Source: an uncultured Rikenellaceae bacterium
GTDB taxonomy: Bacteria > Bacteroidota > Bacteroidia > Bacteroidales > VadinHA17
Direction of reading: 5' to 3'
Assembly: GCA_964633505.1 (NCBI GenBank)
Contig: CAZWHC010000001.1
Location: 596,015 to 660,014 of the forward strand
Length of the DNA stretch: 64,000 nt
Under the pieces are notes generated by a model, which saw nothing but the letters and a program-made list of their open reading frames with translations, was not told where the DNA came from and did not search any database. This document shows, in pieces, positions 16,901 to 40,347 of this stretch (positions are counted from its first letter, which is position 1; each line of letters starts with the position of its first letter). Both the position numbers and the translations under genes were made by a program.

Positions 16901-16903
16901 TGA

Positions 16904-18725: not shown

Positions 18726-18735
18726 TTGAAATGTT

Positions 18736-18769
18736 AAAAAAAACCCCGGGCAGACCCGGGGAATTTTTT
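18736..18769 (-). terminator. rho-independent terminator
   Basis: CCCCGGG-CAGA-CCCGGGG hairpin (18744-18761) flanked by A/T runs, downstream of 18790..19386. Confidence 0.6.
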
Positions 18770-18789
18770 AATAATGTTATAAAGCAAAA

Positions 18790-19386: not shown

Positions 19387-19653
19387 TTCTTTTCTTTTTT
19401 AATACTTTGTTTTGAAAAATTACGATTATTTGGTAGTAATCGGTTCCTCTTAAAAAAATCGGGGCGAAGATAAATATTTTTAAAAATCCGGCAATGGGAA
19501 AATTGAATTTTGTTAATTATTTTTTTTCAACACTAATTAGTCGCCTGATATTAACCTTTCAGGTTTGAAATAATACCATAAAACATTTTCAGAAGCTTCT
19601 TATACAAATATATTACAAACTGATCAATCCGAAACGATCACCCGGTTTATAAA

Positions 19654-22029
19654 TCATATCTCTCCGTGTGAAGTTCTCTCAATTATCTCATTTTGAAGAT
19701 CATCGGCGAGTTCAGTGAAATATGCCGTATAACCGGCAACCCGTATTGTAAGTCCCCTGTAGGAATCCGGATCAGCCTTTGCCTTTAAAAGATCTTCAGC
19801 GTTCACAACGTTGAACTGGACATGATGTATTTTTAGATCAACAAAAGCCCTTAGCAGTGAACAGAAGTTTTCCCTGTCCTCTTCAGTTTTAAACAGTGAA
19901 GGAAGGAATTTCATGTTCAGCAGCGCTCCGTTTGCAGCAAGGTCGAAGGGAAGCTTTGATACTGAATTTAGTACGGCTGTGGGACCTTCCTTATCCCTCC
20001 CGTACATCGGAGAAACGCCTCCATCTGCAAGGGGAGTACCTGCAAGCCTTCCGTCGGGAGTCGCCGCAACATATTGTCCCATCGGAACATGTGCGGAAAC
20101 AGTATATAAACCGAGATTATACTTTCCACCCCTGTAATTTCTGAATCTGCCAAGCGATGTAGCAAAATACTTAAGCCAGAGGGTTCCTCTCCGATCTACT
20201 TCAGGGACATCGTTGCCATATTTGGGAACCTTGTTAAGGCATATCTGCCTCAGGATCCCGTATCCGCTGAAGTTGCCGCGAAGTGCTTCCAGCATCCTTT
20301 CCCTGTCAGTTACCTTCTTTTCATAGACCAGCTCATAAATTGACTGAAGGCTGTCGGCAACATTAGCCGCCTGTATGGCTTGTATGCCAGAGAAATTGTA
20401 AATGGCGCCGCCTGCTGTTACGTCAGTTCCCTTTTCAATGCAGTCATCGATAACTGAAGACAGAAAAGGGGAGGGGAGATGTGCCTGGTGCATCTTCTCG
20501 ACGATCTCGCACATTCTGACCATTCTTTGTACAAAATAATCTATCTGCCCGGAAAAGGCTTTTTCGAGATCTTCGAATTTCTCATAATCAGTAAGAAACC
20601 CTGTCTGAAGGCCCGTTGTCTCACCGGTCAGCATGTCGGTCCCGTTGTTGAGGGTTAGCTCAAGGACTTTCACAAGGTTGAACATTGCGGCGTCGCTCCA
20701 TCCAAGGAAATTTCCCTGGGTGCTCAGCTCGACACACCCCACGACCGCATAGTCGATGGCATGCTTGTGGCTTACACCCGATCTGACCAGAGCCGGAATA
20801 ATGCTTTCATCGTTTACAATCTGTGGCATGCCTGTACCCAGACTGATAATTCTTGTACACTCCTTCAGAAATCCGGCTGGTGATTTACGGTGAAGCCTTG
20901 CAGTCAGGTTGGGCTGGGGGAGCCTGATATGATCCTGGGCTTTTAAAAACAGGAAGGACAGTACATTTGTTGCATCATCACCTGCTTCGGTCTGGCCGCC
21001 AAGAGCAATATTGAATCCTGTTGGAAATCCGGCAAAATATCTGGCGCTGTGTGAATTGCGGAGATATACTATCTGGTTGAATTTGATGAACAATGCATCA
21101 ATAAGCTCAAGAGCCTGTTCATCATCAATCCTGCCTTCAGAAATATCGGATTCATAGTATCTGAGCAGATACTGGTCCATCCTTCCGGGAGAAAAAGATG
21201 AGGCATTCGATTCCATGTGAAGGATGACAAACAGGAACCATACCGATTGTACTGCTTCCCTGAACCCTGACGGCGGATTGGATGCTAAAGTCTCGCATAC
21301 AGCCGCAATTTCTTTAAGGTTTTGAACCGCATTCCTGTCTTTTGTTTTAAGTGACAATTCCATTGCAAGATCTGAATATCTGCGGATGAAATCACATGAG
21401 GCTTCAAGTGTAATTATTACACTTCTGTAGAAATCCTTCTTTTCCTCACTGGCTTCAATGAGTTTTTCTTGTGCGATCCTCAATAATCTTTCAGGTCCGT
21501 ATTCGAGCCAAAGGTCTACGTTTGGACAAATATGTCCCTGTGCATGATCCTTCTGGTTGATCTTTACAACTTTTTCGATTGCTTTCAGCTCATCGCCGGC
21601 TGCCGACCAGATTGCATCCTCGAGTGTAAGTCCTTTCCAGAAAGGCTCTATGTCTTTCCTGAAATGTACTATATCCTCCTCTCTTACAAAAAACGGATCC
21701 TGCGGACGGGAATCGAGAGTTTCGATCTCGTTTGTCAGCCATGAGATCCCTGCTTCGGGAAATACAACGCCTGCCCTTATACCGGGGGTCCTGTTACCAA
21801 CAATTATTTCCTCAGGATCAATTCTGACAGGCATCTCGCGAAGTGAAGCAGCAAGAGCCTTCGCCCTTTTAATGATCACAGGATCATCAGGGTTCTCCTT
21901 ATATACTCGCGTAATTATGAGCGCCTGTTCGACTGATAAAAATCTTTTCTCAGAGATAGTCTTCTCCCTCAGCGACTTTATCCTTGCAGTCATCTGGAGA
22001 TCCCTGATATCAGCATCGGTTTTCAGCAT
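19654..22029 (-). CDS. glycyl radical enzyme, PFL2/glycerol-dehydratase-like family
   Basis: 791 aa. C-terminal glycyl-radical motif 'TIRVAGYTAYF'. Catalytic Cys loop 'AVVGCVELS'. Confidence 0.9.
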   Translation of the reverse strand: MLKTDADIRDLQMTARIKSLREKTISEKRFLSVEQALIITRVYKENPDDPVIIKRAKALAASLREMPVRIDPEEIIVGNRTPGIRAGVVFPEAGISWLTNEIETLDSRPQDPFFVREEDIVHFRKDIEPFWKGLTLEDAIWSAAGDELKAIEKVVKINQKDHAQGHICPNVDLWLEYGPERLLRIAQEKLIEASEEKKDFYRSVIITLEASCDFIRRYSDLAMELSLKTKDRNAVQNLKEIAAVCETLASNPPSGFREAVQSVWFLFVILHMESNASSFSPGRMDQYLLRYYESDISEGRIDDEQALELIDALFIKFNQIVYLRNSHSARYFAGFPTGFNIALGGQTEAGDDATNVLSFLFLKAQDHIRLPQPNLTARLHRKSPAGFLKECTRIISLGTGMPQIVNDESIIPALVRSGVSHKHAIDYAVVGCVELSTQGNFLGWSDAAMFNLVKVLELTLNNGTDMLTGETTGLQTGFLTDYEKFEDLEKAFSGQIDYFVQRMVRMCEIVEKMHQAHLPSPFLSSVIDDCIEKGTDVTAGGAIYNFSGIQAIQAANVADSLQSIYELVYEKKVTDRERMLEALRGNFSGYGILRQICLNKVPKYGNDVPEVDRRGTLWLKYFATSLGRFRNYRGGKYNLGLYTVSAHVPMGQYVAATPDGRLAGTPLADGGVSPMYGRDKEGPTAVLNSVSKLPFDLAANGALLNMKFLPSLFKTEEDRENFCSLLRAFVDLKIHHVQFNVVNAEDLLKAKADPDSYRGLTIRVAGYTAYFTELADDLQNEIIERTSHGEI

Positions 22030-22119
22030 CCGGATAGTGTTATTTGGATTTTCCTGCGAATAAGTGTAGTCCGGTAAATAGAAATTCAGGATTTAAAAAT
22101 AGTAAAAATCCCGGGGAAA

Positions 22120-22650
22120 AATATGCGGTTACAGGTTGGAGGTTGCTGGTTGCTCCACCCTGCAGGCTGGCTCCTTCGCTAAAATGATCCACCGGATCAT
22201 TTCTTAACGCTTGGCCCGGTTGCTGGGTGTTGGTTATTTAGGTTCAAAGTTAAAAGTTCAAGGTTCAATGTTCAAAGTTCAAAGTTCACACTCCAACACC
22301 TGACACCCCTCACTCCTCATTCCTGACACCTGACTCCTGACTCCTGACTCCTCTTCTTCCTCACTACTCACTTCTCACTACTCATTCCTGTATGATAACC
22401 CACCCCCAACCCCTCCCGGGAGGGGATCTCCTGTACTAGTCACCACTCACTACTCACATCTTTTTTTCGCCACGGATGCACGAATTAAAGACGGATCTCC
22501 CCATCACCCCATCTCCACCTCACTACTCATTATCATTCCTGTATGATAACCCACCCCCAACCCCTCCCGGGAGGGGATCTCCTGTACTAGTCACCACTCA
22601 CTACTCACTACTCACTACTCAAATCTGCCCCAAGCCTGCGGCTTACGAAG
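22120..22650. repeat. mosaic word-repeat region
   Basis: Consecutive blocks of GGTTGCTGG, GTTCAAAG, CCTGACAC/CTGACTC and CTCACTACT words. A 74-bp direct repeat occurs at 22383-22456 and 22534-22607. The blocks recur at 33.0-33.4 kb and 50.1-50.7 kb. Confidence 0.85.
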
Positions 22651-22656
22651 CCTGCC

Positions 22657-23871
22657 TTATTTAAGCCTTACTACCATGAGCACCGGATTATCTGTCTCCT
22701 GAAGTCCCTCCGCCATCGTCTTAAACGATTGTTTTCTTTCCGGGGAATTTGCAGTTTTCTCATCAAACTCTTCATCTTTGATGATTTCCCTGAGTTCGAG
22801 CGGAGTGATCGGCATAAATATTTCATTGTCATTAACGGCTTTGACGGGCCAGAAATCCATGCCACCGTCCCAATCGTTAATAAACTTCGCCGGTTCGCCG
22901 GATTTATCTGTAAGAAAATTTCCGGTAAGAGTTGCTTTATCAAATAGTATATTCCTGTCGCCTTCACCTTTATAGTTCTGAGTTTTAATAAATATTGTCT
23001 TTCCAGCTTGCAGCACACTGGAAAAGAAATATTTGCCATTCTCACTCCGGAATCTCACAGCCGACTGGGGAGGTTCAGGCCTGAGTTCATCAGGCAGACG
23101 GAAAGCTCCAAGGTCAACAAAATAAACGGGTTTGATTTTATTGTCTGAAACAGTATAAACAGTATCATTATACATGCTCTTAAAGAAAGTCTGATTATTG
23201 TACTTATAAAAAGGGTGGAAGGCATGATAACCAATCATGCCGGTAATTCCCGTGGTATTAACCCATTTATAGTGATTTTTAACTGTGTTGACTGTATCTC
23301 CTTTTTCATTGGAGAGTAAATATAAATACTCCTCATTGCCTATTGCGCAGGCATAATAGGAAAGAAACTGGTCTTTATTCAAAACATGGATCCTGAAAAC
23401 GTCGGGAGGCCGCGGTACAGATTTAATGAATGTCCCGTCGAATGAAAAATACATAAGCTTACGGCTCCAGTTAGTCTGGATGATAATAAGCTTTTCATTT
23501 TCAAGGATTGAAATATAGGTGATCAGGTCTATTTCACCGGGACCTCTCCCCGGAGTCCCGATCTGGCGAACGAATTTCCCCGAATAATCAAATACAAGCA
23601 GCTGGTCGTAGTTCGCAACAAATATCAGGCTGTCGGAGAAATAATATTCGGGTCTTCCGGAAATCAGGTATTTGTCGCCGGTTTCCAACTGTATGTATTT
23701 TACCTCTGAAGCGATATCGCTCAGAAAGACTGTAGCTTTGTTTTTCAGCTCATTCTCATAATTGATCTCAAAGAATTTTTTCCCATCATTCTCCTCTTTT
23801 GATTTCGTTTTGTTATCACTGTTACAATGTGTTAACAGCAGTAATGAAACAAACAGTGCTATATTTCTCAT
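22657..23871 (-). CDS. lipoprotein, 6-bladed beta-propeller family (paralog 1 of 11)
   Basis: Lipobox 'LLTHC'. Family motifs 'VKYIQLET', 'GRGPGE' and the tail 'ETDNPVLMVVRLK'. It resembles the Bacteroidales '6-bladed beta-propeller / BF3164-type lipoprotein' group (from memory). Confidence 0.7.
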   Translation of the reverse strand: MRNIALFVSLLLLTHCNSDNKTKSKEENDGKKFFEINYENELKNKATVFLSDIASEVKYIQLETGDKYLISGRPEYYFSDSLIFVANYDQLLVFDYSGKFVRQIGTPGRGPGEIDLITYISILENEKLIIIQTNWSRKLMYFSFDGTFIKSVPRPPDVFRIHVLNKDQFLSYYACAIGNEEYLYLLSNEKGDTVNTVKNHYKWVNTTGITGMIGYHAFHPFYKYNNQTFFKSMYNDTVYTVSDNKIKPVYFVDLGAFRLPDELRPEPPQSAVRFRSENGKYFFSSVLQAGKTIFIKTQNYKGEGDRNILFDKATLTGNFLTDKSGEPAKFINDWDGGMDFWPVKAVNDNEIFMPITPLELREIIKDEEFDEKTANSPERKQSFKTMAEGLQETDNPVLMVVRLK

Positions 23872-23934
23872 TTACAGGTCAGGTTAATTATCAAATGGTG
23901 TCATTTTAATAGTTACAAGGACTTATTTCTTTTG

Positions 23935-24058
23935 TTGCAGGTTGCTGGTTGCTGGGTGCTGGGTGCTGAGAGAACTCATGTCTCACGTCCCACATCTTTT
24001 TTGCCAACTGCCAACTGCCAACTTTCCTCTTCTTCTTCCTCACTACTCACTACTCATT
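23935..24058. repeat. mosaic word repeats
   Basis: GGTTGCTGG, TGCCAACTGCCAAC and CTCACTACTCA words. The inverted counterpart lies at 33215-33240. Confidence 0.75.
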
Positions 24059-25234
24059 TCATTCTCTCAGAGTAACAGCAATCAGCAAATGATTATCATC
24101 TTCCTTTATCGTGGATCCGAGTGCTTCAAGCTCTTTCTTGCGGTCGGGGTTCAGCACCTCAGCTTTTCTGAAATCATCGCCTGAAACATGTGCTTTAAAC
24201 TTCATTGCATCGGTCCAGCCATAGATGATCCCGTTGCATACGAATTTTGGCTCAAAATTTATCCCTCCTGAAATATCATCCTTTAAAAGTTCCTTTCCGT
24301 CAAAATAGCTGATCTGGCCAGTTGTTTTATTAACTATTATCCATTTGGTAATATCCTGGTAATAATACCTTAACATAAGGTATTTTTCATTTTCAAGGAT
24401 TTCGGAAATCGACAGGAAATCGGCGGCAGGGCTTCTACCTGATCCCATAGCGGGAGCCGGTACATTCGCAAGGAAATCCGTTGTAATGCTTTTTCCGTGG
24501 GTATTCAATATCATGAATGGAATAAATTCAAACTCCCTGTTTATAGTATAGATAGTATCATTCAGAAATCCCTTGATCCTTATAGTTTCGTTATGTTTAT
24601 TGATTACATTGTCTACATTAAATCCCATTACCACTCTCGAAATCCTTTTAAATTTATAAAAATTTGGCCTTATAAAGAGAGTATCACCATCCGTATTTAT
24701 CCCGACGCACTGATATTTATTCTCACCTGTTGATGCTGTAAATGAAAGCAAAATATTATCCTGCCCCGGAAGGAAGTCGACATAACCTGGCTGCATTTTC
24801 AGATCAAGTTGCTTTTGCAGCTTAAAGCCGGTATCGGTTTCATTGTAGAAGAACAATTTGCCTCTTGTAAGCACGGCCACAAGGTTCTTTTCGGGCCTTA
24901 TGTCATAATCCGACAGGTATGTATATTCTCCAGGGCCTCTGCCCTGTTGTTCAAGCTTATAAAGAAATTTGCCTTTTTTATCGAAACAGAGGAGCTCGAG
25001 CACTGTGTTTATGTAATATTTATCATTGCCTTCTTTAAGATATCCTACAAATTTCATAAAGGCATCAGGATGCGATTCGAGAGGGATATACCGGATGTCG
25101 GTAGCAATTTCCGACAGGTTCTTAATTTCAATACCGCCGGGGGAGAGGACATCGATGGTCCTGACAGCCTGGTCGTCTTTACTTTTACAGCTGAACAAAA
25201 TCAGTGCAAGGATAAAAATAATAAGGTTTCTCAT
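24059..25234 (-). CDS. lipoprotein, 6-bladed beta-propeller family (paralog 2)
   Basis: Lipobox 'ILFSC'. Motifs 'IRYIPLES' and 'GRGPGEY'. Diverged tail 'EDDNHLLIAVTLRE'. Confidence 0.7.
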   Translation of the reverse strand: MRNLIIFILALILFSCKSKDDQAVRTIDVLSPGGIEIKNLSEIATDIRYIPLESHPDAFMKFVGYLKEGNDKYYINTVLELLCFDKKGKFLYKLEQQGRGPGEYTYLSDYDIRPEKNLVAVLTRGKLFFYNETDTGFKLQKQLDLKMQPGYVDFLPGQDNILLSFTASTGENKYQCVGINTDGDTLFIRPNFYKFKRISRVVMGFNVDNVINKHNETIRIKGFLNDTIYTINREFEFIPFMILNTHGKSITTDFLANVPAPAMGSGRSPAADFLSISEILENEKYLMLRYYYQDITKWIIVNKTTGQISYFDGKELLKDDISGGINFEPKFVCNGIIYGWTDAMKFKAHVSGDDFRKAEVLNPDRKKELEALGSTIKEDDNHLLIAVTLRE

Positions 25235-25354
25235 GGCTTTATTATTGTATAACAGGTTTATATTCCCACTAATTTACACCTAATATAATAGTCGCACAAC
25301 TAATTTTGTAATAATGTGAAAAAGAATTTTGCCATGAATGCCACGAATAAGGAA

Positions 25355-25560
25355 AATTGTCTTGCAAGTCATGCAAGTCGTTCAAGTCATGCAAGTCGTG
25401 CAAGTCAGGCAAGTCGTGCAAGTCTGGAACTGGTTTTATGGACCTTCAAGACCTGCATGACCTGCAAGACCTGCATGACCTGCAAGACTTTCTTCCCCTG
25501 CTCTCATCCCTTCGCTCTTCGCCCTTCGCCCTTCGCCCTGCGCCCTGCGCCCTGCGCCTT
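25355..25560. repeat. mosaic word repeats (CATGCAAGTCG x~8; GACCTGCA x5; CCCTTCGC x4; CCTGCGC x4)
   Basis: Read directly from the sequence. It overlaps the last ~41 codons of the RND ORF 25436..28582. Confidence 0.85.
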
Positions 25561-28500
25561 TATAAATATACCAGTACGCCAGCGGTATAAAGAACAGACT
25601 CACGATTGTACCCAGCGACATTCCTCCTATCAGCGCCAGCGCCATCGGACGCTGAAGCTCCGAACCCATGCCTTCGCTGAACAGTATCGGCGCCGTCGAG
25701 AACAATGAGGCCATCGCCACCATAATGATTGGCTTCAGCCTCCTGGAGCCCCCTGTATAGATAGCTTCCTTAAGCCCCAGGCCTTCGGCCCGGAGGTTGT
25801 TGATAGTATCGACCTTAAGTATTGAGTCGTTGATTATAACCCCCGACATTACTATCAGCCCGATCATGGTTATAATGTTGATGGTCCCGCCCCAGATCAG
25901 GACAAGCAGAAGCGCGCCGGCAATATCTATGGGGATCTCGAGCAATACTATAAGGGGCTGGGTAAGCGATTCAAACTGGGCAGCAAGGATGAAATAGAGC
26001 AGGAGCAGGGCTACTGCAAGTATTACAGCGAGTTCCCTGAACAGCTTCTGACCTGTAATAAGCGATCCGCTGAAGCTTACATTAAGATCCCGGTCAGGCG
26101 GAACCAACTTCCTTATCTCTCCGGTAAGCTCCGACGGCCTGTTTGTGTTGATATTGAGGTAAACTGGAACAAACTCGCCGTTCATACCTCCCCTGATAGT
26201 CTTGTAATCATGTATCCTCTGTACATTTATAAGCTCCTTTACAGGTATCATCCGGCCGTTTTTGCTTATTACAGTTTCTGTCGAAATAATATCGCCAACC
26301 TGTTTTTCCATATCCGAAAGGACTATCGGGAGGATCTCATACGACGCCCTGAGTTCGCCTATGTTATACCTGTTGAGTGATGCTTTGAGCGTATTGTAAA
26401 GAGTGGCCGGCTCTACATCATACAGCAACAGCCTGTCGGGATCGATCTTCAGAAGTATCTTGTCTTCAAGGGGAGGATTCGATATGCCGGCTCCGGGCCA
26501 CTGTTCCTTCATCCTGGAGACTATTCCGGTCATGACATCAACAGGAGGCACTTCTTTTTCCTTCATCAGGCTTACTTCAGCCACGAGAGGAGGTTCAGAA
26601 GCCGAGAAAATCTTTTCGAATATATTCTCCTGGGCGGCAATGTTTACAGTTGCTCCGGGCCATCTCCGGCCTGTCAGGTCAAGTAATTCCCTGCCAAGCT
26701 CTTCCTGTGCCCTGTAGTCCTTTGCTTTTATATATACCTTTGCCTGGGTGTACGACTGGTCATAGTCGCGGTTAAAGAGGAACTGCTGTTCCCCAATGAA
26801 TGAGTTGGTCTGTAATATCAATTTACCCATCGACGCGGTCATCATTTTTATCCTTTCCAGGTTTTCCTGAAGCTCTATATTCTCGTTCCAGTCGACTGAT
26901 ACCACGAGTTCATCCTGTTTTATTGCCGGAAACCTCTCCTTTTCAAGGGTGAAGAAAAGGAAGATCATCAGAAGGATTATCAGGCCAAATGTTATCATAA
27001 CAGCCTTCCTGTACCTGAAAAAGAAATTCATGCCTCCTTCGTATTTCTCTTCCAGGCGTTTCAGGCTGATCTTCCTTACAAAACGTGTCAGTATTCCCTC
27101 TTTCCCATTTTTATACAGAAGGTAATATATTGTGGGAAGCAGTGTTATTCCTACCAGCAGCGAGACTCCCTGGCCAATTACAATTGCAATAGCCTGGTCA
27201 TAAAACAACGCTCCCGAAATGCCGCTGAGAAAAATAAGAGGGATAAACACTGCACATGTGACAAGGACCGATGAGATCAGAGGAGTTATAATTTCGTTTG
27301 TGCCTTTAACACATGCCTCCGGAAGTGTCAGTCCCCTGTCGATCCATTGCGTTATGTTCTCAATTACAACAATTGAATTGTCGATCATCATCCCGATGCC
27401 AAGTATAAGACCGGCGAGGGAGATTATATTTATCGACAATCCGGTGAGATAAAAGAACAGCAGGCTTATGACAAGCGTTGCCGGTATGCTGAATCCGATA
27501 ATAAGCGGAGATTTCCCGTCCTTCAGGAAAAAGAACATAAGCAGGAAAGCCAGCAGTCCTCCTGCAAGCAGACTCTGCCACAGGTTCGATATCGAATAAT
27601 CGAGCAGTCTAGTCTGGTCCTGCGATATCTCAAATTCCATCTGGGGATAATCCTTCCTGAAAACATCGAGAAGCTCTGTCATCTTCGTCTCCAGCGAGGC
27701 CATCCTTGCCGTTGATTCCTTTATTATAGCAAGAGCTATGGCTCTTTTACCATTTGAATAATAAACACCCCGCGGCTGTTCCTGTCTGATCCCCACCTCG
27801 GCAATATCTTTCATCTGAATTATCCGGCTCCCTGTCCTGATATAAATATCCCTCACATCATTCAGGTCCTTCAGATATGAGCTGAACTCGAGATTATAAA
27901 GGTATTTGCCGTCTTTTACCAGGATGCTGCCGATATTTATATTGTTGATCTTTACTGCGCCGGTAATGTCATCATCGGTTAGACCGAGGCTGTTCATCTT
28001 TTGCCTGTCGGGACTTATAAATATCTCCCTTTTTATCTGTCCGGTTATGTCAGCCATCCCAACCTCGGGAAGCTGTTCTATCCTTTTCTTGATGACTGTC
28101 TCGGCAAATTCGCTCAGTTCGATGAATTTCTCATCGCCGGCCATGGTGTCGGCCAGCGTGATGTTAAGCATGAACACCGGTATATCCGTGGCACTTGCCT
28201 TTATTATCCTTGGTCTTTCAAGGTCGTTGGGGAGGTAGTTCATCGCTCCGTCGACTTTTTCGTTTACCTCCATGAATGCAAGGTTGATGTCGTTCCCGAA
28301 TTTGAACGAAAGTCTTATGAGTGCGCTTCCGTTGCGTGATTCCGATTCAATGCGGTCAATGCCCTGTACCTGCAGGAGGTTTCTGCGGAGTATCGATACC
28401 ACGCTGTTCTCAAGCTCCCTGGCGCTTACATCAGGCCGCGAAACAGCAACTGTTATCTCCGGAATATCTATGTCGGGCATCAGCGATACCGGCAACCGGT

Positions 28501-28582
28501 TCGAGGCCACTATTCCCAGCATCAGCAATGCCAGAAAGGTCATTATGACTGCTACGGGCCTTGTTATAAGAAATTTTACCAC
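25436..28582 (-). CDS. RND efflux transporter permease (AcrB/MdtC-like)
   Basis: 1048 aa with 12-TM RND topology. N-terminus 'FLITRPVAVIM'. The apparent GTG start lies inside a TTACCAC word. The C-terminal ~41 aa are encoded by word repeats. Confidence 0.85.
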   Translation of the reverse strand: MVKFLITRPVAVIMTFLALLMLGIVASNRLPVSLMPDIDIPEITVAVSRPDVSARELENSVVSILRRNLLQVQGIDRIESESRNGSALIRLSFKFGNDINLAFMEVNEKVDGAMNYLPNDLERPRIIKASATDIPVFMLNITLADTMAGDEKFIELSEFAETVIKKRIEQLPEVGMADITGQIKREIFISPDRQKMNSLGLTDDDITGAVKINNINIGSILVKDGKYLYNLEFSSYLKDLNDVRDIYIRTGSRIIQMKDIAEVGIRQEQPRGVYYSNGKRAIALAIIKESTARMASLETKMTELLDVFRKDYPQMEFEISQDQTRLLDYSISNLWQSLLAGGLLAFLLMFFFLKDGKSPLIIGFSIPATLVISLLFFYLTGLSINIISLAGLILGIGMMIDNSIVVIENITQWIDRGLTLPEACVKGTNEIITPLISSVLVTCAVFIPLIFLSGISGALFYDQAIAIVIGQGVSLLVGITLLPTIYYLLYKNGKEGILTRFVRKISLKRLEEKYEGGMNFFFRYRKAVMITFGLIILLMIFLFFTLEKERFPAIKQDELVVSVDWNENIELQENLERIKMMTASMGKLILQTNSFIGEQQFLFNRDYDQSYTQAKVYIKAKDYRAQEELGRELLDLTGRRWPGATVNIAAQENIFEKIFSASEPPLVAEVSLMKEKEVPPVDVMTGIVSRMKEQWPGAGISNPPLEDKILLKIDPDRLLLYDVEPATLYNTLKASLNRYNIGELRASYEILPIVLSDMEKQVGDIISTETVISKNGRMIPVKELINVQRIHDYKTIRGGMNGEFVPVYLNINTNRPSELTGEIRKLVPPDRDLNVSFSGSLITGQKLFRELAVILAVALLLLYFILAAQFESLTQPLIVLLEIPIDIAGALLLVLIWGGTINIITMIGLIVMSGVIINDSILKVDTINNLRAEGLGLKEAIYTGGSRRLKPIIMVAMASLFSTAPILFSEGMGSELQRPMALALIGGMSLGTIVSLFFIPLAYWYIYKGAGRRAQGEGRRAKSEGMRAGEESLAGHAGLAGHAGLEGP

Positions 28583-28602
28583 TTTCTATTTTTTTAATTT
28601 TT

Positions 28603-28687
28603 AACCACGGAGTCACACGGAGTAAGTACGGAGTTTCACGGAGTTAAAACAGTGGAACTCCGTTTTTACTCCGTGTAACTCCGTGGT
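28603..28687. repeat. 85-bp near-perfect palindrome of CACGGAG words
   Basis: 'aaccacggagtcacacggagtaagtacggagtttcacggag..ctccgtttttactccgtgtaactccgtggtt'. It spans the junction of the two RND permease genes. Confidence 0.85.
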
Positions 28688-31600
28688 TTATATTTTTCTT
28701 CATCATCATCGGTTGCAACACCACCAGCCCCACAAAACTGGCCACCAGCCCTGAGATGGTCCCTGCCGCCAGTGCAAACCAGAACCTTTCATCCTTGCCA
28801 GTCAGAAGAAAGGGGATAAGGCCCACGATTGTCGAGAGCTTTGTGAGGATTATAGGGATTATCTTGCCGTTGAAGGCCTTAAGGTAGGCTATCCTTTCGG
28901 GGAGAGCTGGACGCTTACGCCTGATGCTGTTGAAGTCGTTAAGTATATAAAGCGTTGCATTTACAACGATGCCGCACAGGAGTATAAGTGCAGCAAACAC
29001 CCCTTCGTCGGCCGGAATGTTGAAAATATGGAATGTGAGAAAAACTCCCGTGAATGAGAAGGGGATCAGGCTTATAACAACAAAAGGCTGTCTGAATGAC
29101 TCGAGCAGGATGGCACAGATGAAATATATTATCACAATAACAAGGAAAATAAGCAGATAATTGGTTTTCTGCTGTTCCCACGAGTACCTGTAAGTATCGC
29201 TTTGCGCAGAATAGCCAAGAGGCAGGAGGGAATTTGTCTCATCGATGTTCCTGTCGAGTATCAGTTGCCCCAGCTCATAATTGCCTATGAAATCGTATCC
29301 TACTGTGATGACATATTGCTGATCCTCGCGCCTGATGGTGTTGTCTGAAACTTCCCTCGTGATTTTGGAAAAGTCCTTGAGTTTAATGAACTGTCCCTGT
29401 GCAGTTTCAACAGGCTCATTTCTGATGCTCCAGTAATCATAAAGTTCCGACTGCTGCGATTTAATTACGACAGGCGCGGTGATCCCGTTAATATAGGCTG
29501 ACATTGAAGAAGCCGTGCTCCTCGAATATATTCCGGTCTCATTAAACGCCCGGGCAACGCCTGAGTTGCTGCCTGCAAGATAGAATTTATCCATCTCGAG
29601 CCTGTTCCTGTAAACCTTGCGGTTGTTCATTCCGGTAAAAAATCCCCCGTAATTTTCTCCAAGGAGATATACCTCCTTTATCCTTCCCTTGCCGCTTTCG
29701 ACAAGCCTGTCTCTCAAAGCTTCACAGCAGGAGTAAAGCTCATCATAATTATATCCCTTCATCAAAATTCTGTATGTTGTCCGGATATAATCACTGTAAA
29801 CCTCGTTGCTGAAATATTTCCCGACACCGTAAACGGAAGCATGGTAGCTTCCGATTCCGTTCATATAATCCTCAATCTTTATCTTCAGGATATACGGAAA
29901 GATTGTGAAGTCGTGTTCGGGTCTGAACGTTATGGAAACCGTTGCTTCGTTTTCACTGAAAATGCTTGTGGTGAACATGTCTATCTCAGGATATCCTGCA
30001 AGCATATTTTCGAGTCCAATGCAGGTATTGTTCATATCCTCAGTCGTAAGTCCCTCCTCGCTTAACCCTATGTTAACTGTAAGTCTTGTTCGTTGTACCT
30101 CATCGGAACTTCCATACCAGTAGAACCGGCTGCTCTTCACTTTTTCGTTGAAAAGCCTGAATGTTCCTCCCAGTACTTTATTAACTACAGGCTTTATGTC
30201 CTGAACATATTTTTTGTTTCCAAGCGTCTTGTTGTACAGTTTCTGGTATTTATCAGGTTCCTTTTTCGACTGCCGGTCCGTGGTATCTTTCGGGAGTGAA
30301 TCGGGAAGGTAGAAAACAGGAAGGCCGAAAAGCAATATTGCTGCAATTATCAGGATCGCTTTCCTCCTAATTATGAAATCAATAGCTTTCAGGTATTTTT
30401 GAGAGAAGAGTGCAACCCTTCTCTTCCTTTTTATCACCAGGGCATTGAATTTCGGGACCAGTTGAATCTTTTCGAGAAGGGATGGTATGAAAAAAAGGGC
30501 TACCGCAAGGGAGACAGAGAGGTTTATTATTACAACACCTGCAAAATCGGAGAGGGATATTCTTGATGCTTCATCGAGGAAGAAGATGACTGCAAGAGCG
30601 CCTATCGTTGTGAGCGTCGCCGCGAGGAGTGAAATGCCGACTTTCCTGTCCTTCCTGAACCTTATATGGTCGGTCATAACGATTGTATTGTTTATTATTA
30701 TGCCGAACGAGACCGTGATGCCCGCCAGAGAGTAAAGATGTATCTCTAGCCGGAACAGGTAATAAAAAATAAAGGCTATCAGGATATTGGCGACCAGGCT
30801 GATAGAAATTATAAGGAGATATCTGAATTCACGGCTTATGACAAGTACGAAAAGCAGAAGAAGGATCACTGAAAGCACAGCCCTGAAAATGTTCTTCGAG
30901 ATCTCTTCCCTCAGATATGTCGTGTTGTCGACAGATGTTCTTATGCTGTAACCCGGAGGGAGTTCCTTTTTAATGTTCTCGATAATCTCCTTTACCTTTC
31001 CGGCAACTCTTATGTTATTTACATTTTTCCCGGCATTGACATTAATGTTTATTGTATTGAGGCCGTTTATCCTGTAATAGCTCTGGGGGCGTCTGTCTTT
31101 CAGCCTGACAGATGCGATTTCGGCAAGATGGATAATGCGGCCGCCCGCTTTTGCAACAGGGATTTCCTCCCAACGGAATTCCTCCCTGTCGTTGCCGGAA
31201 AGGGTAAGATATGTTCTTTTGCCCGGGCCGGCGGTCTGAAGTTCCATTGCACCTCCAAGTTCCCTTTCGAGAAGGTAGTTGCCGATAGCAGCGCTTATAA
31301 GGGATGGATCTATGCCAAGCGACGAAAGCTTCTGCTGATCATAAACAAGTTCCCACTCGCGGGGTGTTGCGCCATATACATTTACACTGTAGACACCTTC
31401 GGCAACAGCTATGGCCGGCTTGATGACTTCGTCGGCAAGGGTGTAAATATACGACGGGCTTGCATTCCCGTTAAGCTGAAAGGTGAGTATGGGCGATCCC
31501 GAAGTGTTTGACGGCATGTTCATTGCGATTTCGGGATATGAAACCCTGCCGGGAAGTCTCCCGCGCGACTGCCGCAAAAGAGATGCAACTTCGAAACGTT

Positions 31601-31916
31601 TTGCCCGCAGGTCGGTATTCCTGTCGAATTCGACTGTAATGTTTCCTCCGTCGTCGTACGATGAGGAAGATATTTTCTGAACGCCGGCAACAGTTGTCAG
31701 CATGCCTTCGAGGACAGTGGTGACCTCCTGTTCGACGACGCGAACCGGTGCTTCGGGCCAGTTCCATGAGATTGTCAGCGAAGGAAGGTATCTTGTCGGG
31801 TTAAGCTGGAGCGAAAGCAAAGGGATCATTGCCGCACCGACAATGATCAGCATCACAAAAAGGATATTGACAGTGAATGTGGAAAGAAAAGAGCTGTGAT
31901 GAGGTTCGGTGTTCAT
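28644..31916 (-). CDS. RND efflux transporter permease (second, divergent paralog)
   Basis: 1090 aa with full 12-TM RND architecture. It overlaps the adaptor gene by 4 bp. Confidence 0.8.
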   Translation of the reverse strand: MNTEPHHSSFLSTFTVNILFVMLIIVGAAMIPLLSLQLNPTRYLPSLTISWNWPEAPVRVVEQEVTTVLEGMLTTVAGVQKISSSSYDDGGNITVEFDRNTDLRAKRFEVASLLRQSRGRLPGRVSYPEIAMNMPSNTSGSPILTFQLNGNASPSYIYTLADEVIKPAIAVAEGVYSVNVYGATPREWELVYDQQKLSSLGIDPSLISAAIGNYLLERELGGAMELQTAGPGKRTYLTLSGNDREEFRWEEIPVAKAGGRIIHLAEIASVRLKDRRPQSYYRINGLNTININVNAGKNVNNIRVAGKVKEIIENIKKELPPGYSIRTSVDNTTYLREEISKNIFRAVLSVILLLLFVLVISREFRYLLIISISLVANILIAFIFYYLFRLEIHLYSLAGITVSFGIIINNTIVMTDHIRFRKDRKVGISLLAATLTTIGALAVIFFLDEASRISLSDFAGVVIINLSVSLAVALFFIPSLLEKIQLVPKFNALVIKRKRRVALFSQKYLKAIDFIIRRKAILIIAAILLFGLPVFYLPDSLPKDTTDRQSKKEPDKYQKLYNKTLGNKKYVQDIKPVVNKVLGGTFRLFNEKVKSSRFYWYGSSDEVQRTRLTVNIGLSEEGLTTEDMNNTCIGLENMLAGYPEIDMFTTSIFSENEATVSITFRPEHDFTIFPYILKIKIEDYMNGIGSYHASVYGVGKYFSNEVYSDYIRTTYRILMKGYNYDELYSCCEALRDRLVESGKGRIKEVYLLGENYGGFFTGMNNRKVYRNRLEMDKFYLAGSNSGVARAFNETGIYSRSTASSMSAYINGITAPVVIKSQQSELYDYWSIRNEPVETAQGQFIKLKDFSKITREVSDNTIRREDQQYVITVGYDFIGNYELGQLILDRNIDETNSLLPLGYSAQSDTYRYSWEQQKTNYLLIFLVIVIIYFICAILLESFRQPFVVISLIPFSFTGVFLTFHIFNIPADEGVFAALILLCGIVVNATLYILNDFNSIRRKRPALPERIAYLKAFNGKIIPIILTKLSTIVGLIPFLLTGKDERFWFALAAGTISGLVASFVGLVVLQPMMMKKNINHGVTRSKNGVPLF

Positions 31917-32968
31917 TCTTCCTTCACTACTGTTTCATGGGCGAGGTTGACATTCCCGCTGACGATTACTAGATCCCCGGGTTCGAGGCCTTCTTTTATT
32001 GAAACGCTTGTACTGTTCTCAGCTTCGACAGTAACATATTTCCAAATTGCAAGAGTATCCTGCCTTACAAAGATCACGTCTTTCCCCTGGCGTATGACAA
32101 GAGCTTCTTTCGGGACGACCAGGCGGCCGCTGACGGGTTTTCTGATGACTACCTTTACATTCATTCCGTCGATGAGAAGGCCGTTGTTACGAAGTTCCGC
32201 CTTTATCTTTATCATTCCCGTTTCATCGACCTGGGGGTTTATCTGGGTTATCCTTCCGGAAATGAAAGTGCTGTCGTTTATGAAGGGTATAATGCCGACG
32301 GGCATTCCTTTGTTTAAGAAGCTGAATTCCGATTCAATAACCGGAAACTCTACTTCCATGTCCTGATCGTTTATAATTGTACAGAGGTTCTTATAATCCT
32401 GGCTGGGATTCCACTGAAGAGCTTCGAGGTTGGCCACCACGCCTCTTATAGGGGCATGTATGCGTGTATTGCTAAGTTTATATTCGGATAATTTAAGCGC
32501 AGTGATAGCATCGTCGAGGCCGCTACGGGTACGGGTTGTCTTTACTTTTTCATGTGAAAGTTCGGATGTGTCGTAAGTAACGTATTTGCTGTAAAGTTCA
32601 TCCTTAAAGTTTATCTCAGCCTTTGCAAATGTTTGTTTTGCAGTCTCGAGCTGCGACTGGTATTCGAAATCCTCAATGACAGCAAGGAGGTCTCCTGCTT
32701 CTACTTTCTGACCGTTTCGTATCAGGAGTTCTTTAATGATTCCGTTCACTTTAAACGGGACAACAGCTTTTTGTGAGGCATGTACTTTCCCGTTGCTTAT
32801 CAGTTCGTGGTAAAATACAGAAGGTTCAAGTTTTACTGTTTTTACCAGCACTGCCTCGGGCCGCGAAGAGCGGCGTGCTATTTCCTCGAGGTTATCTGTT
32901 GTTTTTGGCTTGCAGGAAAAGATCATTATGATAATCGGAACAAGAATCAGCCGGGACCGGATTTTCAT
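31913..32968 (-). CDS. RND efflux periplasmic adaptor (MFP)
   Basis: 351 aa. Lipobox-like 'IFSC'. The biotinyl-lipoyl/beta-barrel pattern ('GQKVEAGDLLAVIE', 'IHAPIRGVV') is typical of HlyD_D23-type adaptors. Confidence 0.8.
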   Translation of the reverse strand: MKIRSRLILVPIIIMIFSCKPKTTDNLEEIARRSSRPEAVLVKTVKLEPSVFYHELISNGKVHASQKAVVPFKVNGIIKELLIRNGQKVEAGDLLAVIEDFEYQSQLETAKQTFAKAEINFKDELYSKYVTYDTSELSHEKVKTTRTRSGLDDAITALKLSEYKLSNTRIHAPIRGVVANLEALQWNPSQDYKNLCTIINDQDMEVEFPVIESEFSFLNKGMPVGIIPFINDSTFISGRITQINPQVDETGMIKIKAELRNNGLLIDGMNVKVVIRKPVSGRLVVPKEALVIRQGKDVIFVRQDTLAIWKYVTVEAENSTSVSIKEGLEPGDLVIVSGNVNLAHETVVKEE

Positions 32969-33035
32969 GGCAAACTACTTTGGTTAGTCAGGACATTAAC
33001 GAAATTTAAATTTATGTAATAATAATGATAATGAA

Positions 33036-33425
33036 AAGGGGAGGGGACTATTTTTTCGGCAAAAAATCAGCTGGTAAAAAGGCAAAGGGCAGGGAGCGGA
33101 GGGCAGAGGGCAAGAGATGAGATATGAGATTTGAGTAGTGAGGTGGAGATGGGGAGATGGGGAGATGGGGTGATGGGGAGATCCGTCCTTAATTCGTGCA
33201 TCCGTGGCAAATGAAAGTTGGCAGTCGGCAGTTGGCAAAAAAAAGGAGTCAGGAATGAGGTGTGAGGGGTGGGGTCAGGTGTGTGAACTTTGAACCTTGA
33301 ACCTTGAACTTTTAACTTTGAACCTAAATAACCAGCACCCAGCACCGGGCCGAGCGTTAAAAAATGATCCGGTGGATCATTTTAGTGATGGAGCCGGGTT
33401 GTAGGGGAGCAGCACCCGGCACTTG
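33036..33425. repeat. mosaic word-repeat region (largely the reverse complement of 22.2-22.5 kb blocks)
   Basis: Contains the rc copy of 'gccacggatgcacgaattaaagacggatctcccc', plus GGGGAGATGG, TGAGTAGTGAGG, TTGAACCTTGAAC and CCAGCACCCAGC words. Confidence 0.85.
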
Positions 33426-34721
33426 TTATCTTAATATACTTCTCAACGGCTTTATCAGCCTGAATATAAGCCTGCTGTTGTCTGTTATTATATCTGCCGT
33501 TCCGGTCATCTCGTTTATAAAGCCAAGGTTAATTCCATATGTCGATCTCAAACCGTTCACAAGATCAATCTCCGCTATATAATTATCCCCAACGGGTACA
33601 AGCGATAAGGTGCTGATCTTCCCTTTTAGAACTCCATATTCCATGTAAGGAAATCCCGAGAGCTTAATATTAACTTCCTGACCGGTTTTTACTTTTCCGA
33701 GTCCTGATGCCTGAACGTTTGCCCTAACAATTATCCTGCTCGGATCATCAGGAATTACAGTTGCAAGTATTTCTCCTGCCTTTATTACCTGATTGATGTT
33801 CCAGTAACTTGTAAAGGTTATCCTTCCTTTTACCGGACTTTTGATCAGGTATTTCTCTTTCCACTGGTCAATCGCCAGTGAAAGCATCTTAAAGGAATCA
33901 TCGAGGTCGAGCTTATACTGATGCAGTTCCTTTTCAAGCTGTACAAGAAGATCAAGCCTTGTCTCCTTCATCTTCAAAGCCGTTGATTCATTGTTCTTAA
34001 TGGAAGCCCTTAGAGAGCTGTGCGCGGATTTTTTCTGTATCAATGCCTGCTTCGACCTTTCATATTCGCTTAGGGTAACCGAATGCAGTTTACTGTAATA
34101 CAACACCGAATCGCGCTCATAGCTTCGCAAGACTAGATTGAGATCTTCTGCCGACAGCTTCTCCTGGTTTAGAAGCTCTGCAGTGTATTCATTTTGTTTC
34201 CTGATTTGCTGGTCAAGTAGTTTTAGCTTTGAATGAATGTAAGACTGCCTGAGATATTCCCTGAACTGAAAGAAATATGTCAAAAACCGGGAATAGCTTG
34301 TCTGAATTTCACCTATTGACAGTTCTTCAGGCGGAGCATATTTTGTAACATCATTCTGCCAGTCCTGATTGGCTTCAAGAGTGTCAAGAAATGCAACCAG
34401 GGCAAGTATATCATTATATTCGGCAGTATTTTCAATTAATGCCACAGGCTGGTCAGTCACAATATCCGATCCGTTGCTTACGATAAGTTTTTCTATTTTA
34501 CCTCCCGATTTTGCAACCAGCGGGGCAGGGGAGTTATAGGTTGTAATAGTTACAGGAGCAGTAACTACATCCGGATAATTGATAAACCATGTCACCCCGA
34601 GTATAGCCACGATAATGGCAAAAAAGAGAAACAATCCCCATCTCAGGAAGCTTCCCGGGATCTCCGACATTACTTCCTGCAACTCCGGGCTTCGGATTTC
34701 GTGTTTGACGATTTCGGACAT
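33426..34721 (-). CDS. HlyD-family secretion adaptor (bacteriocin/type I exporter partner)
   Basis: 431 aa with an N-terminal TM and a long coiled coil between lipoyl-like halves. It lies directly downstream of the C39-ABC transporter. Confidence 0.8.
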   Translation of the reverse strand: MSEIVKHEIRSPELQEVMSEIPGSFLRWGLFLFFAIIVAILGVTWFINYPDVVTAPVTITTYNSPAPLVAKSGGKIEKLIVSNGSDIVTDQPVALIENTAEYNDILALVAFLDTLEANQDWQNDVTKYAPPEELSIGEIQTSYSRFLTYFFQFREYLRQSYIHSKLKLLDQQIRKQNEYTAELLNQEKLSAEDLNLVLRSYERDSVLYYSKLHSVTLSEYERSKQALIQKKSAHSSLRASIKNNESTALKMKETRLDLLVQLEKELHQYKLDLDDSFKMLSLAIDQWKEKYLIKSPVKGRITFTSYWNINQVIKAGEILATVIPDDPSRIIVRANVQASGLGKVKTGQEVNIKLSGFPYMEYGVLKGKISTLSLVPVGDNYIAEIDLVNGLRSTYGINLGFINEMTGTADIITDNSRLIFRLIKPLRSILR

Positions 34722-34734
34722 AGTCTTTGTCTTA

Positions 34735-34802
34735 TGCGCAGGGCACAGGGCTCAGGGATATTTAGGTTTTGCTCTGTGCTCTGCGCTCTGTGCTCTGTGC
34801 TT
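34735..34802. repeat. word repeats (GCAGGGC / CTCTGTGCTCTGCG)
   Basis: Same word family as the in-frame insert at 36711-36875. Confidence 0.8.
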
Positions 34803-37169: not shown

Positions 37170-37177
37170 AACCGTTA

Positions 37178-38362: not shown

Positions 38363-38461
38363 AGGCTTTGTTTTATAATGTTGAGAATAAGTCTTGTTTT
38401 TAGGATTATTTTAATAAAATGATCTTTAGGTTTATCATATTTCATTCTCACTTTTTACTTA

Positions 38462-39922: not shown

Positions 39923-39994
39923 TACTTAGCCAAAGAGAAAATGGATCATGAATTTCTCATTCGATATTTGACTTAGAGTCATTTATTTAAATCT

Positions 39995-40025: not shown

Positions 40026-40096
40026 TTTGTACATAGTTAAATCATTACAGAATCAATCCTGTTTGAGTGTATTATCTTAAATTCAAGATAATATTT

Positions 40097-40306: not shown

Positions 40307-40347
40307 GATATCACATTTTTAAATCTAAGAAACTGTTTACAATATTC

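Follow-up and report, generated by a model that had tools for sequence, protein, structure and literature searches.

Heptanucleotide lattices and small palindromes in the intergenic repeat mosaics of a Bacteroidales genome

What are the repeats that crowd the gaps between genes in this 64,000-nt stretch of DNA from a member of the Bacteroidales, and how did they come to be there? A first-pass annotation of the stretch (the window, by which we always mean its whole length) had described blocks of degenerate tandem words and mini-hairpins in both orientations. The blocks themselves hold up, but that annotation contained neither the strict 7-nt lattice in which the words are written, nor the kinship of the blocks with known repeat types, nor the occurrence across Bacteroidota of a 17-mer, GCCACGRATGCACGAAT, that lies within them. 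On balance, and with modest confidence, we read the mosaics as a Bacteroidota variant of the heptamer lattices known as short tandemly repeated repetitive (STRR) sequences and small dispersed repeats (SDR), combined with atypical palindromes akin to repetitive extragenic palindromic (REP) sequences and bacterial interspersed mosaic elements (BIME); slippage, copying-in of elements and recombination of blocks would explain most of their features. Numbers with the prefix L denote external contigs or loci fetched for comparison.

Results

The tandem words form lattices in a 7-nt register

The words, first described as 7-12 nt long, are tandem as claimed, but they are overwhelmingly heptamers that follow one another in one continuous register, with few 8-, 9- and 10-mers. 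Set out in rows of seven, what had appeared as different words are successive stretches of one array at constant phase. In a period scan of the window, arrays of period 7 took up 794 nt, of which 709 are noncoding, as against 0 in shuffled sequence, other periods being minor, and Tandem Repeats Finder returned 79 rows, chiefly of period 7 and clustered in the named gaps, with arrays in at least 10 gaps. Eight of the named intergenic mosaic gaps were measured for self-identity at a lag of 7 nt. Five of them gave 0.41-0.69, with lower values at lag 14 and again at lag 21, as against 0.23-0.33 in coding DNA and control gaps. The gap at 51565-52301 gave 0.36, the palindrome-only gap at 14308-14722 was at background (0.26), and so was the gap at 25235-25565 (0.27), where identity peaked instead at lags 9 and 18 (0.45 and 0.44). 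In the 23-unit lattice at 22235-22395, identity was 0.69, 0.60 and 0.52 at lags 7, 14 and 21, respectively. The longest run in one register, of 28 units, lies at 50536-50735.

Among the 89 arrays in all fetched loci there are 51 distinct units, almost none of them common to different taxa. What is conserved in the arrays is the period, not the sequence, which suggests that a mechanism, namely slippage in steps of 7 nt, lies behind them and argues against a sequence-specific function. With 7-nt units head to tail, a chiefly intergenic position and a copy number that varies between strains, the arrays are heptanucleotide simple-sequence repeats of the STRR or long simple-sequence repeat (LSSR) type. 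Separately, in an 8-mer array, GGAGATGG, at 33141-33184 and 50476-50504, GGGG runs stand 4 nt apart and could form G-quadruplexes.

The mosaics are reproducible and mainly intergenic

The repeats stand far above chance, and the coordinates of the first-pass annotation were all correct. The core of its ~90-bp block, CCACGGATGCACGAATTAA, occurs at 22470 (+), 33189 (-) and 50511 (-), three matches as against 0.01 expected; CCCACCCCCAACCCCTCCCRGGAGGGGAT occurs at 14627, 22399 and 22550 (three as against 0 expected), and the hairpin AATGATCCACCGGATCATTT at 22183 and 33362. Most blocks recur with 99.9-100% identity in assemblies from three collections (Logan, JGI and NCBI), built on five separate sets of sequencing data. 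Logan contigs from three runs and one JGI contig matched the window at 100% over 14688-22196 (L018), 23997-33326 (L024), 50559-52013 (L025, L026 and L027, which cover this and shorter spans) and 31803-40169 (L148), and an NCBI assembly (L149) matched 33387-38852 at 99.93%. Short-read contigs end within the arrays, which could be read as a sign of faulty assembly or sequencing but is also what dispersed repeats would predict. Given the agreement of independent assemblies, and many unrelated contigs that hold the same repeat types, the repeat landscape is genuine and reproducible; an artefact, to which we give practically no chance, is excluded.

Most intergenic gaps in the island, and some outside it, had been said to be filled with such blocks. 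Only 13 of the 30 gaps have mosaics, but these account for 58% of the gap bases, and the mosaics fill more than half of the window's intergenic DNA. Their position is mainly intergenic, as described, but one block (36725-36880) falls inside an open reading frame (ORF), and a second (25436-25565) encodes the C-terminal tail of one. Housekeeping genes occupy 1-22 kb, and a DUF5128 cluster, which also has genes for export and modification and is partly of low GC content, extends from 22.6 kb on; among the proteins encoded in the window are DUF5128/DUF4934 beta-propellers, RND pumps and a C39-peptidase ABC transporter. The low-GC island part (37-49.5 kb and 52.3-59.4 kb) is largely free of mosaics. 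The closest database relatives are uncultured Bacteroidales. The sole Rfam match in the window is tRNA-Ser (14220-14307), and HIP1 (GCGATCGC) has 0 sites in the window, which is therefore not cyanobacterial.

Composites are dispersed, interrupted and rearranged

The large blocks are not shuffled between sites, as had been proposed, but are collinear copies, with insertions and deletions, of a composite of ~300-500 bp. Three copies lie in the window (A, B and C in Table 1) and a further one in L005. The order of parts is a GTTGCTG array, TTATTTAG, a GTTCAAA array, a CTGACNC array, a CTCACTA array, CATCTTTTTTTCGCCACGGATGCACGAATTAAAGACGGATC and a TCCCCATC array. The copies have unrelated flanking genes and ragged ends, and alignment of copies A, B, C and L005 revealed no terminal inverted repeats; for the composites, the absence of termini of insertion sequences (IS) or miniature inverted-repeat transposable elements (MITE) noted at first pass is thus borne out.

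CTCACTA arrays, uninterrupted in copies B, C and L005, are broken in copy A by two insertions of a 59-nt element that has TCCTGTA at both ends and a CCCCTCCCGGGAGGGG palindrome core. The 30-nt core of this element, TAACCCACCCCCAACCCCTCCCRGGAGGGGA, is identical to a stretch of the IMG/VR contig L157 (IMGVR_UViG_3300021392_000010), which, with its very long heptamer arrays and a HIP1 count of seven in 10.5 kb, looks cyanobacterial. This match is a single case in low-complexity sequence; it fits the cross-phylum distributions given in the Discussion. In L157 the 30-nt core stands in frame (PLLGGVGGGLG) just before the FMDD motif of a reverse-transcriptase-like ORF (5889-6923). Scans of a viral collection gave coding coincidences only for the composite junction and the TCCCGAAGCATCGGGA hairpin, and no match for CTTCGGAATCCGAAGC.

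Comparison with related genomes, which the first-pass annotation had called for, showed that the blocks vary in copy number, in modules and in gene order. Over 7.6 kb, a strain of 98.4% identity carries no fewer than 12 CCAGCAA units in place of the window's two units and a hairpin module; this variable site is directly upstream of a pyruvate formate-lyase gene, and ~90 bp of unique DNA between mosaic and gene start are kept. The same strain lacks the 118-bp tandem copy at tRNA-Ser. In a related species (94.6% identical in the region of a TonB-like gene) the composite is present, with modules gained and lost, and the gene order is helix-turn-helix (HTH) - DUF5128 - TonB as against HTH - TonB - DUF5128 in the window, with the breakpoints in mosaics. 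The window's TonB-like gene is flanked by the repeat 50255-50445 / 52045-52235, which had been taken for a mirror image but is a diverged direct repeat. A role of the blocks as recombination substrates, one of those proposed at first pass, gains support from these breakpoints and from a C39 paralogue that breaks exactly at the in-ORF array (see below).

Elsewhere, the same grammar is found in a 650-bp intergenic mosaic from another metagenome (L069, 1151-1808), where heptamers stand together with the 17-mer (two copies), GGTCCCGAAGNNTCGGGAT (four copies) and CACCCCCAGCCCCTC..GAGGGG, so that the sharing of some words reaches beyond the window's close relatives. The low-GC island has repeats of its own (40222-40443 / 42076-42293; 42368-42812 / 44635-45079; 42904-43160 / 55178-55430), which do not belong to the heptamer mosaics; they probably represent duplicated gene ends, or else small genes, in the DUF5128 cluster.

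Arrays alter protein genes

The in-ORF lattice at 36725-36880 makes up the bulk of a ~57-amino-acid (aa) insertion in a loop of the transporter's C39 peptidase domain; solved homologues in the PDB align to aa 4-101 and 157-182 only. The loop is hypervariable, from ~10 to 90 aa among the 51 orthologues aligned (of 120 retrieved), and is occupied in them by low-complexity peptides with 7-aa or 3-aa periods (RAQSTEQ, DLQDLHD). At the DNA level, one of two orthologues has a CACAGAG array and the other has GACTTGCAT/GACCTGCAT 9-mers; the latter, in another species (L150), are the word of the window's intergenic array at 25441-25488. A truncated C39 paralogue (56587-56943, 118 aa) is 78% identical in DNA to 36806-37413, and its homology ends exactly at the start of the insert, after which a mosaic module follows. 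In the RND pump with the array-encoded tail, the AcrB profile stops at aa 1005 of 1048, and the gene call is of 1035 aa ending at 25436.

The surrounding cluster (22657-63966) holds at least 11 DUF5128/DUF4934 six-bladed propeller paralogues, and also the C39-peptidase ABC transporter, two HlyD-like proteins, a VKOR-thioredoxin protein, glycosyltransferases and a LanC-like protein. It is largely of 30-38% GC, as against ~44% elsewhere, and orthologous clusters occur in other Bacteroidales (L150, L151).

A 17-mer is conserved across Bacteroidota

The block core CCACGGATGCACGAATTAA had 16 exact matches among species-representative genomes, 16/16 of them in Bacteroidota (Saprospiraceae, Rikenellaceae, Chitinophaga, Chryseobacterium, Prolixibacteraceae, Dysgonomonadaceae, Lentimicrobiaceae and unclassified Bacteroidales). 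The 17-mer itself was found in at least 120 metagenome loci and at least 136 loci overall. Among the 136 loci listed it forms inverted pairs in 59, with GCCAC at the stem base and spacers of 1-196 nt, and stands in tandem units in 14; within 300 nt of it there is a 3.7-fold enrichment of period-7 arrays. The three copies in the window are solitary, and the arms are not palindromes. Convergent gaps hold an excess of 17-mer sites (odds ratio 1.9, p = 0.01), and no recurrent neighbour gene emerged when all ORFs within 1.5 kb of it in these loci were clustered. The 17-mer is in neither Rfam nor the searchable literature: Rfam 15 gave no match in 12 loci with the 17-mer hairpin, and the string, in either orientation, returned 0 papers in a full-text search. 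A scan of the viral collection gave one real intergenic case (L019), the rest being coding coincidences.

Could the mosaics be working cis-regulatory DNA or RNA? They might be hypermutable contingency loci that tune promoter spacing or 5' untranslated regions, of which the 7-bp repeats upstream of the Haemophilus hmw genes are an example, or arrays of binding sites for a conserved protein. The conservation of the 17-mer across Bacteroidota is in keeping with such a role, as would be the retention of its sequence rather than its pairing (111 one-arm as against 4 matched changes in 72 pairs, a test biased to the point of being uninformative, the loci having been selected on one exact arm). The words CACGGAG, CTCTGCG and CACAAAG are spaced at 10-11 nt, about one helical turn, which would put the sites on one helix face. 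The copy-number difference between strains lies directly upstream of the pyruvate formate-lyase gene, and the unique DNA before its start is preserved. Contingency loci, however, need long perfect tracts for phase variation, and the arrays seen here comprise just 2-7 degenerate units. Different taxa hardly ever have a unit sequence in common, no gene family recurs beside the 17-mer, and the blocks stand in either orientation in all gap types, within ORFs and at ORF ends. A regulatory role is, in our judgement, unlikely.

Perfect palindromes accompany the lattices

Perfect Watson-Crick mini-hairpins with stems of 7-10 bp and loops of 1-4 nt or none lie in or beside the lattices (for example CCCCTCCCGGGAGGGG, AAAATGATCCaccGGATCATTTT, CTTCGGAaTCCGAAG, CTTAGCGAGCgcaGCTCGCTAAG and TCCCGAagcaTCGGGA), each family having 2-4 copies in 64 kb. 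Longer hairpins have arms of repeated words at ~10-nt spacing; that at 28597-28690 folds with a minimum free energy (MFE) of -34.1 kcal/mol (z-score, z, -10.9) and overlaps ORF 28644-31916 at its 3' end. Hairpin feet are 5' CCAC ... GTGG 3' or absent, and TWCCACGRA feet number 5 in the window as against 1.7 expected, which is not significant alone.

On folding, the element adjoining tRNA-Ser (~140 nt) forms perfect helices that meet at a four-way junction (MFE -94.3 kcal/mol, z -15.7, every pair Watson-Crick); Rfam 15 gave no match to it at gathering and E-value thresholds. In the 98.4% identical strain (L017, 7635-7790) the element is replaced: the outer inverted repeats and one arm differ, the other two arms are partly similar, and the architecture is the same. 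This replacement suggests that a family of structure-defined elements may target the site. Nearby in the same contig (7900-8005), part of the tRNA-Ser 5' half is duplicated around the mini-hairpin ATCCGCCAGCTGGCGGAT, at the contig end, which may be real or an assembly effect.

With 16-bp perfect terminal inverted repeats around ~140 bp (14305-14445), the tRNA-adjacent element recalls a MITE, and the composites, dispersed beside unrelated genes, could likewise be MITEs of an ordinary IS family with heptamer arrays as internal filling, as in a Porphyromonas gingivalis MITE with an internal minisatellite (PMC4596501). But the composites have ragged ends without terminal inverted repeats, and arrays also stand alone, without any element. 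The outer repeats at the tRNA site are completely different between the two strains, so one transposase could not serve both, and the window's only IS/transposase (DUF772, 38478-39815) has no visible relation to the repeats. We regard a MITE origin as very doubtful.

It had also been proposed that the blocks are intrinsic terminators or insulators between genes, an idea to which the many stable hairpins and the enrichment of the 17-mer in convergent gaps lend some colour. Terminator-like sites are not enriched, however (17 as against 11.8 +/- 4.1 in shuffles), and most of the mass of the mosaics is unstructured tandem repeat. Immediately upstream of the 17-mer stands an A/T-rich, mixed sequence, in which T makes up 0.47-0.69 at positions -4 to -2, in place of the uniform T-tract that follows an intrinsic terminator stem; because of the symmetry of 17-mer pairs, the same mixed sequence lies downstream of the inverted partner. 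Mosaics occur in divergent, convergent and co-directional gaps, in both orientations, and within ORFs. This explanation is therefore highly improbable. A sigma-70 promoter scan was also run; its promoter model does not fit Bacteroidota.

Beside these palindromes there is a separate repeat family, in which five or six copies of a 10-mer (AAGTTGCCAG / AAGTTGACAG) stand at one-helical-turn spacing in a conserved block of ~150-350 bp (window 49590-49680 and 59860-59950; L005 2300-2452). The block at 49.6 kb lies just downstream of a small HTH-like ORF (49693-49923, -), by its stop codon. In its layout the block resembles an iteron or operator array.

Table 1. Repeat features of the window (positions in nt; z, z-score of folding energy).
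Feature	Position	Strand	Remarks
Composite copy A	22135-22656	+	GTTGCTG array, hairpin AAAATGATCCaccGGATCATTTT, GTTCAAA, CTGACNC and CTCACTA arrays, 17-mer core, TCCCCATC array, CTCACTA array
Composite copy B	33070-33425	-	Opposite orientation to copy A; reproduced whole in L148 and as far as 33326 in L024
Mosaic with composite copy C (core ~50427-50735)	50090-50739	-	Includes 28-unit lattice 50536-50735
59-nt inserted element, copy 1	22385-22443	+	Interrupts CTCACTA array
59-nt inserted element, copy 2	22536-22594	+	Again inside CTCACTA array
Core TTCGCCACGGATGCACGAATTAAAGACG containing 17-mer GCCACGRATGCACGAAT	22466-22493	+	
Heptamer lattice, 23 units, one register	22235-22395	+	GTTCAAA > ACCTGAC > ACTCCTG > TCACTAC, gradual change
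Heptamer lattice	23931-24058	+	GTTGCTG, TGCCAAC and CTCACTA sub-arrays; lag-7 identity 0.53
Heptamer lattice	34735-34802		CAGGGCA and TGCTCTG; lag-7 identity 0.59
In-frame heptamer lattice GCAGAGC, CCTGAGC, 22 units	36725-36880	-	Inside ABC transporter 34803-37169
Arrays CCCTTCG, CCCTGCG and 9-mers	25436-25565	-	43-aa C-terminal tail of RND pump ORF 25436-28582
Two inverted arrays of one 9-mer word (GTCRTGCAA, GACCTGCAW)	25359-25488		Long imperfect hairpin; z -5.2
Word hairpin CCACGGAG-CACGGAG-ACGGAG-CACGGAG, then CTCCGT-CTCCGTG-CTCCGTGG	28597-28690		Spacing ~10-11 nt
Inverted word arrays CTTTGTG x4, then CCACGAAG/CACAAAG x4	3095-3220		Between divergent genes; z -5.8
CCACGGAG word hairpin and solitary CCACGGAG	3700-3815		Between convergent genes; z -5.0
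GC-rich mini-hairpin pair CCTTCCCCcaaaGGGGAAGG and TTTCCCCCctGGGGGAAA	12632-12716	+	Dispersed element 91.6% conserved in L005/L123
Nested-palindrome element adjoining tRNA-Ser	14305-14565	+	16-bp outer inverted repeat around three perfect hairpins; partial 118-bp tandem copy
Third copy of CCCACCCCCAACCCCTCCCAGGAGGGGAT core, and palindrome TCCCCTGGGAGAGGGGGA	14620-14712	+	
Module block: CTCTGCG words, TTTCAGAGTTCCAGGG x2, CTTCGGAgTCCGAAG hairpin	50255-50445	+	Direct repeat of 52045-52235
Mosaic with mini-hairpins GCTTCGTAAGC, CTTCGGAATCCGAAG, TCCCGAagcaTCGGGA and heptamers GAGATAT, GTGAGTA, AGGTGTC	51780-52240	+	Includes 52045-52235 repeat
Third copy of CTTYGGAATCCGAAGC-TTTGYGAAGGATTCGGC module	59989-60074	+	

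Discussion

Origin of the mosaics

How would such mosaics arise? On the explanation that we favour, a Bacteroidota variant of STRR/SDR-type lattices with atypical REP/BIME-like palindromes, heptamer lattices (with few units of 8-10 nt) would arise and resize in place by slipped-strand mispairing or unequal exchange, slippage being presumed to set the 7-nt register; where point mutations were then re-amplified locally, runs of different words in one phase would be left. Small palindromes and word hairpins, including the 17-mer, would be copied to new sites, often in or beside arrays, probably on single-stranded hairpin DNA by an HUH/Y1 enzyme of the REP-associated tyrosine transposase (RAYT) type encoded elsewhere in the genome. 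Composites would then be duplicated and recombined among sites, with the mosaics serving as recombination substrates. Selection would clear copies that damage genes, and mosaics would thereby build up in intergenic DNA, at the 3' ends of ORFs (as tails) and, in frame, in tolerant protein loops. On this reading the mosaics would have no dedicated regulatory role.

Several points weigh against this account. A six-frame regular-expression search for HUH...Y motifs, covering the window and ~0.95 Mb of fetched loci, gave no HUH/Y1 gene, and the copying enzyme is therefore one that we purely infer. The hairpins are without the canonical GT[AG]G foot and have mirror feet, 5' CCAC ... GTGG 3', and the 17-mer arms, unlike the REPs in REP doublets forming hairpins (REPINs), are not palindromes. 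Since the targets consist of repeats in their turn, target-site duplications cannot be made out. The 9-mer arrays that are identical across species and the shared 30-mer mean that words are copied or transferred, which slippage in place cannot explain. Finally, the 17-mer is conserved from class to class within the phylum, unlike species-specific REPs; such conservation hints at a binding partner that is itself conserved, and hence at a possible function.

A different process, of a kind also suggested at first pass, could be at work, namely a dedicated, hitherto undescribed templated-insertion system (a polymerase, primase, reverse transcriptase or HUH enzyme) that writes 7-nt tandem words and fold-back palindromes in a Bacteroidota vocabulary partly common to Cyanobacteria. 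All mini-hairpins are perfectly Watson-Crick paired with 1-4-nt loops or none, whatever their sequence; the two 98.4% identical strains have different sequences but the same four-way architecture at the tRNA site; one 9-mer array recurs in two species in different contexts; and an identical 30-mer lies in a contig rich in HIP1 sites and heptamer arrays. The taxonomic distributions are compatible with such a system, HUH subclasses 1.2 and 2.4 being largely confined to Cyanobacteria and Bacteroidetes (PMC6006769) and TAACTGA arrays occurring in both phyla as well as in Beggiatoaceae and Thiocystis violascens (PMC4679880). Yet no candidate gene was seen, the cross-phylum match is one low-complexity case, and slippage, quasi-palindrome template switching and ordinary recombination each suffice. 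We consider templated insertion rather improbable. It is also conceivable, if unlikely, that Bacteroidota, perhaps with Cyanobacteria, carry an active, undescribed repeat-writing system that draws on a transferable vocabulary to start both 7-nt lattices and perfect fold-back palindromes. Such a system would have left as its traces GCCACGRATGCACGAAT, conserved between classes of the phylum, the cross-species 9-mer arrays and the 30-mer in a reverse-transcriptase-like gene, and its enzyme could be one of the HUH/Y1 subclasses 1.2, 2.4 and 2.6, largely confined to the two phyla. A dedicated enzyme or a binding partner would be compatible with the shared vocabulary and with the conservation of the 17-mer, which offers a simple probe for a conserved protein partner.

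The consequences extend to genomes and proteins alike. Short-read contigs of this organism break at the repeats, so metagenome-assembled genomes of such Bacteroidota would systematically lose both the repeats and the rearrangements that they mediate. The repeats alter proteins, by the in-frame insert of ~57 aa and the 43-aa tail, and mark breakpoints in a DUF5128-rich cluster.

Comparison with known repeat systems

That the blocks are not CRISPR was already stated at first pass and stands: their units are of 7-10 nt, constant repeats with unique spacers are absent, and no cas domains were found in the window or fetched loci. BrickBuilt, the Porphyromonas gingivalis MITE, has an internal minisatellite of 23-nt units and long defined terminal inverted repeats (PMC4596501). 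The mosaics resemble it as Bacteroidales repeats with an internal tandem array and inverted repeats, but the composites have neither 23-nt units nor long defined terminal inverted repeats. Rickettsia palindromic elements are inserted in frame in protein genes. The C39 insertion is like them in being a putatively selfish repeat tolerated in frame in a surface loop of a functional protein, and unlike them in being a tandem heptamer lattice and in recurring with different content at one loop across orthologues.

Short (20-40 nt) imperfect palindromes that are dispersed and extragenic, as REPs are, occur in the window, and like REP/BIME they are combined with other motifs as mosaics and biased to gene 3' ends. 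The first-pass annotation was nevertheless right to call them not classical REP/BIME, since the 5' GT[AG]G foot is lacking. Further differences from REP/REPIN are the non-palindromic arms of the 17-mer and its conservation across classes, as against lineage-specific REPs; heptamer lattices are not part of the REP/BIME anatomy, and no RAYT gene was seen in the window or fetched loci. Closer parallels are the 'atypical' REP-like sequences without GTAG listed for the Bacteroidetes RAYT subclass 2.6 (Quentin et al., PMC6006769 Table S1), among which those of Cytophaga hutchinsonii show CCAC/GTGG words. The window mini-hairpins share with them 8-10-bp stems, 3-nt loops and a dispersed, intergenic position. 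In-frame gene insertions are reported for subclass 2.4 (PMC6006769), and Aequorivita sublithincola has both long heptamer arrays (PMC4679880) and subclass 2.6 (PMC6006769).

Heptamer arrays had been noted previously only in passing, in a few Bacteroidetes (PMC4679880). TAACTGA direct repeats occur in Beggiatoaceae, Cyanobacteria, five Bacteroidetes and Thiocystis violascens (MacGregor 2015, PMC4679880); close relatives share the gene neighbourhood without the repeats, and translational regulation is proposed there for repeats just upstream of start codons. For heptamer and long simple-sequence repeats generally, slippage has been proposed (Mrazek 2007, as summarised in PMC4679880). The mosaics are likewise heptamer arrays in intergenic DNA of some Bacteroidetes, but TAACTGA is not a window unit, and the window arrays have no fixed position or orientation. 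For the small dispersed repeats of Nostoc, PMC3116915 cites Elhai et al. 2008. We found no systematic description of such heptamer repeats in Bacteroidales or Bacteroidota in the searchable literature.

The SDR of Nostoc are reportedly 21-27 nt long, lie inside heptamer arrays, are nested and form hairpins. The 59-nt element is also small, nested within heptamer arrays and hairpin-forming, but it is longer (59 nt with a 30-nt core) and of another sequence. The cyanobacterial STRR are heptamers with many different units per genome, mostly intergenic, strain-variable and without an agreed function, slippage being their proposed cause. STRR in the strict sense (STRR1-3 of heterocystous cyanobacteria) were considered and set aside, the organism being a member of the Bacteroidales without HIP1 sites; presumably, too, no unit among the fetched-locus arrays is an STRR1-3 unit. 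The mosaics share with the STRR tandem 7-nt units, many different ones in one genome, mainly intergenic with some in genes, and strain-variable in copy number; they differ in phylum and in units, and the words of the window follow one another in one unbroken register, tightly interleaved with palindromic elements. A second phylum with the same anatomy, together with the conserved 17-mer and the shared HUH subclasses, gives a comparative handle on the origin of heptamer arrays, a question that dates back to the discovery of STRR in cyanobacteria.

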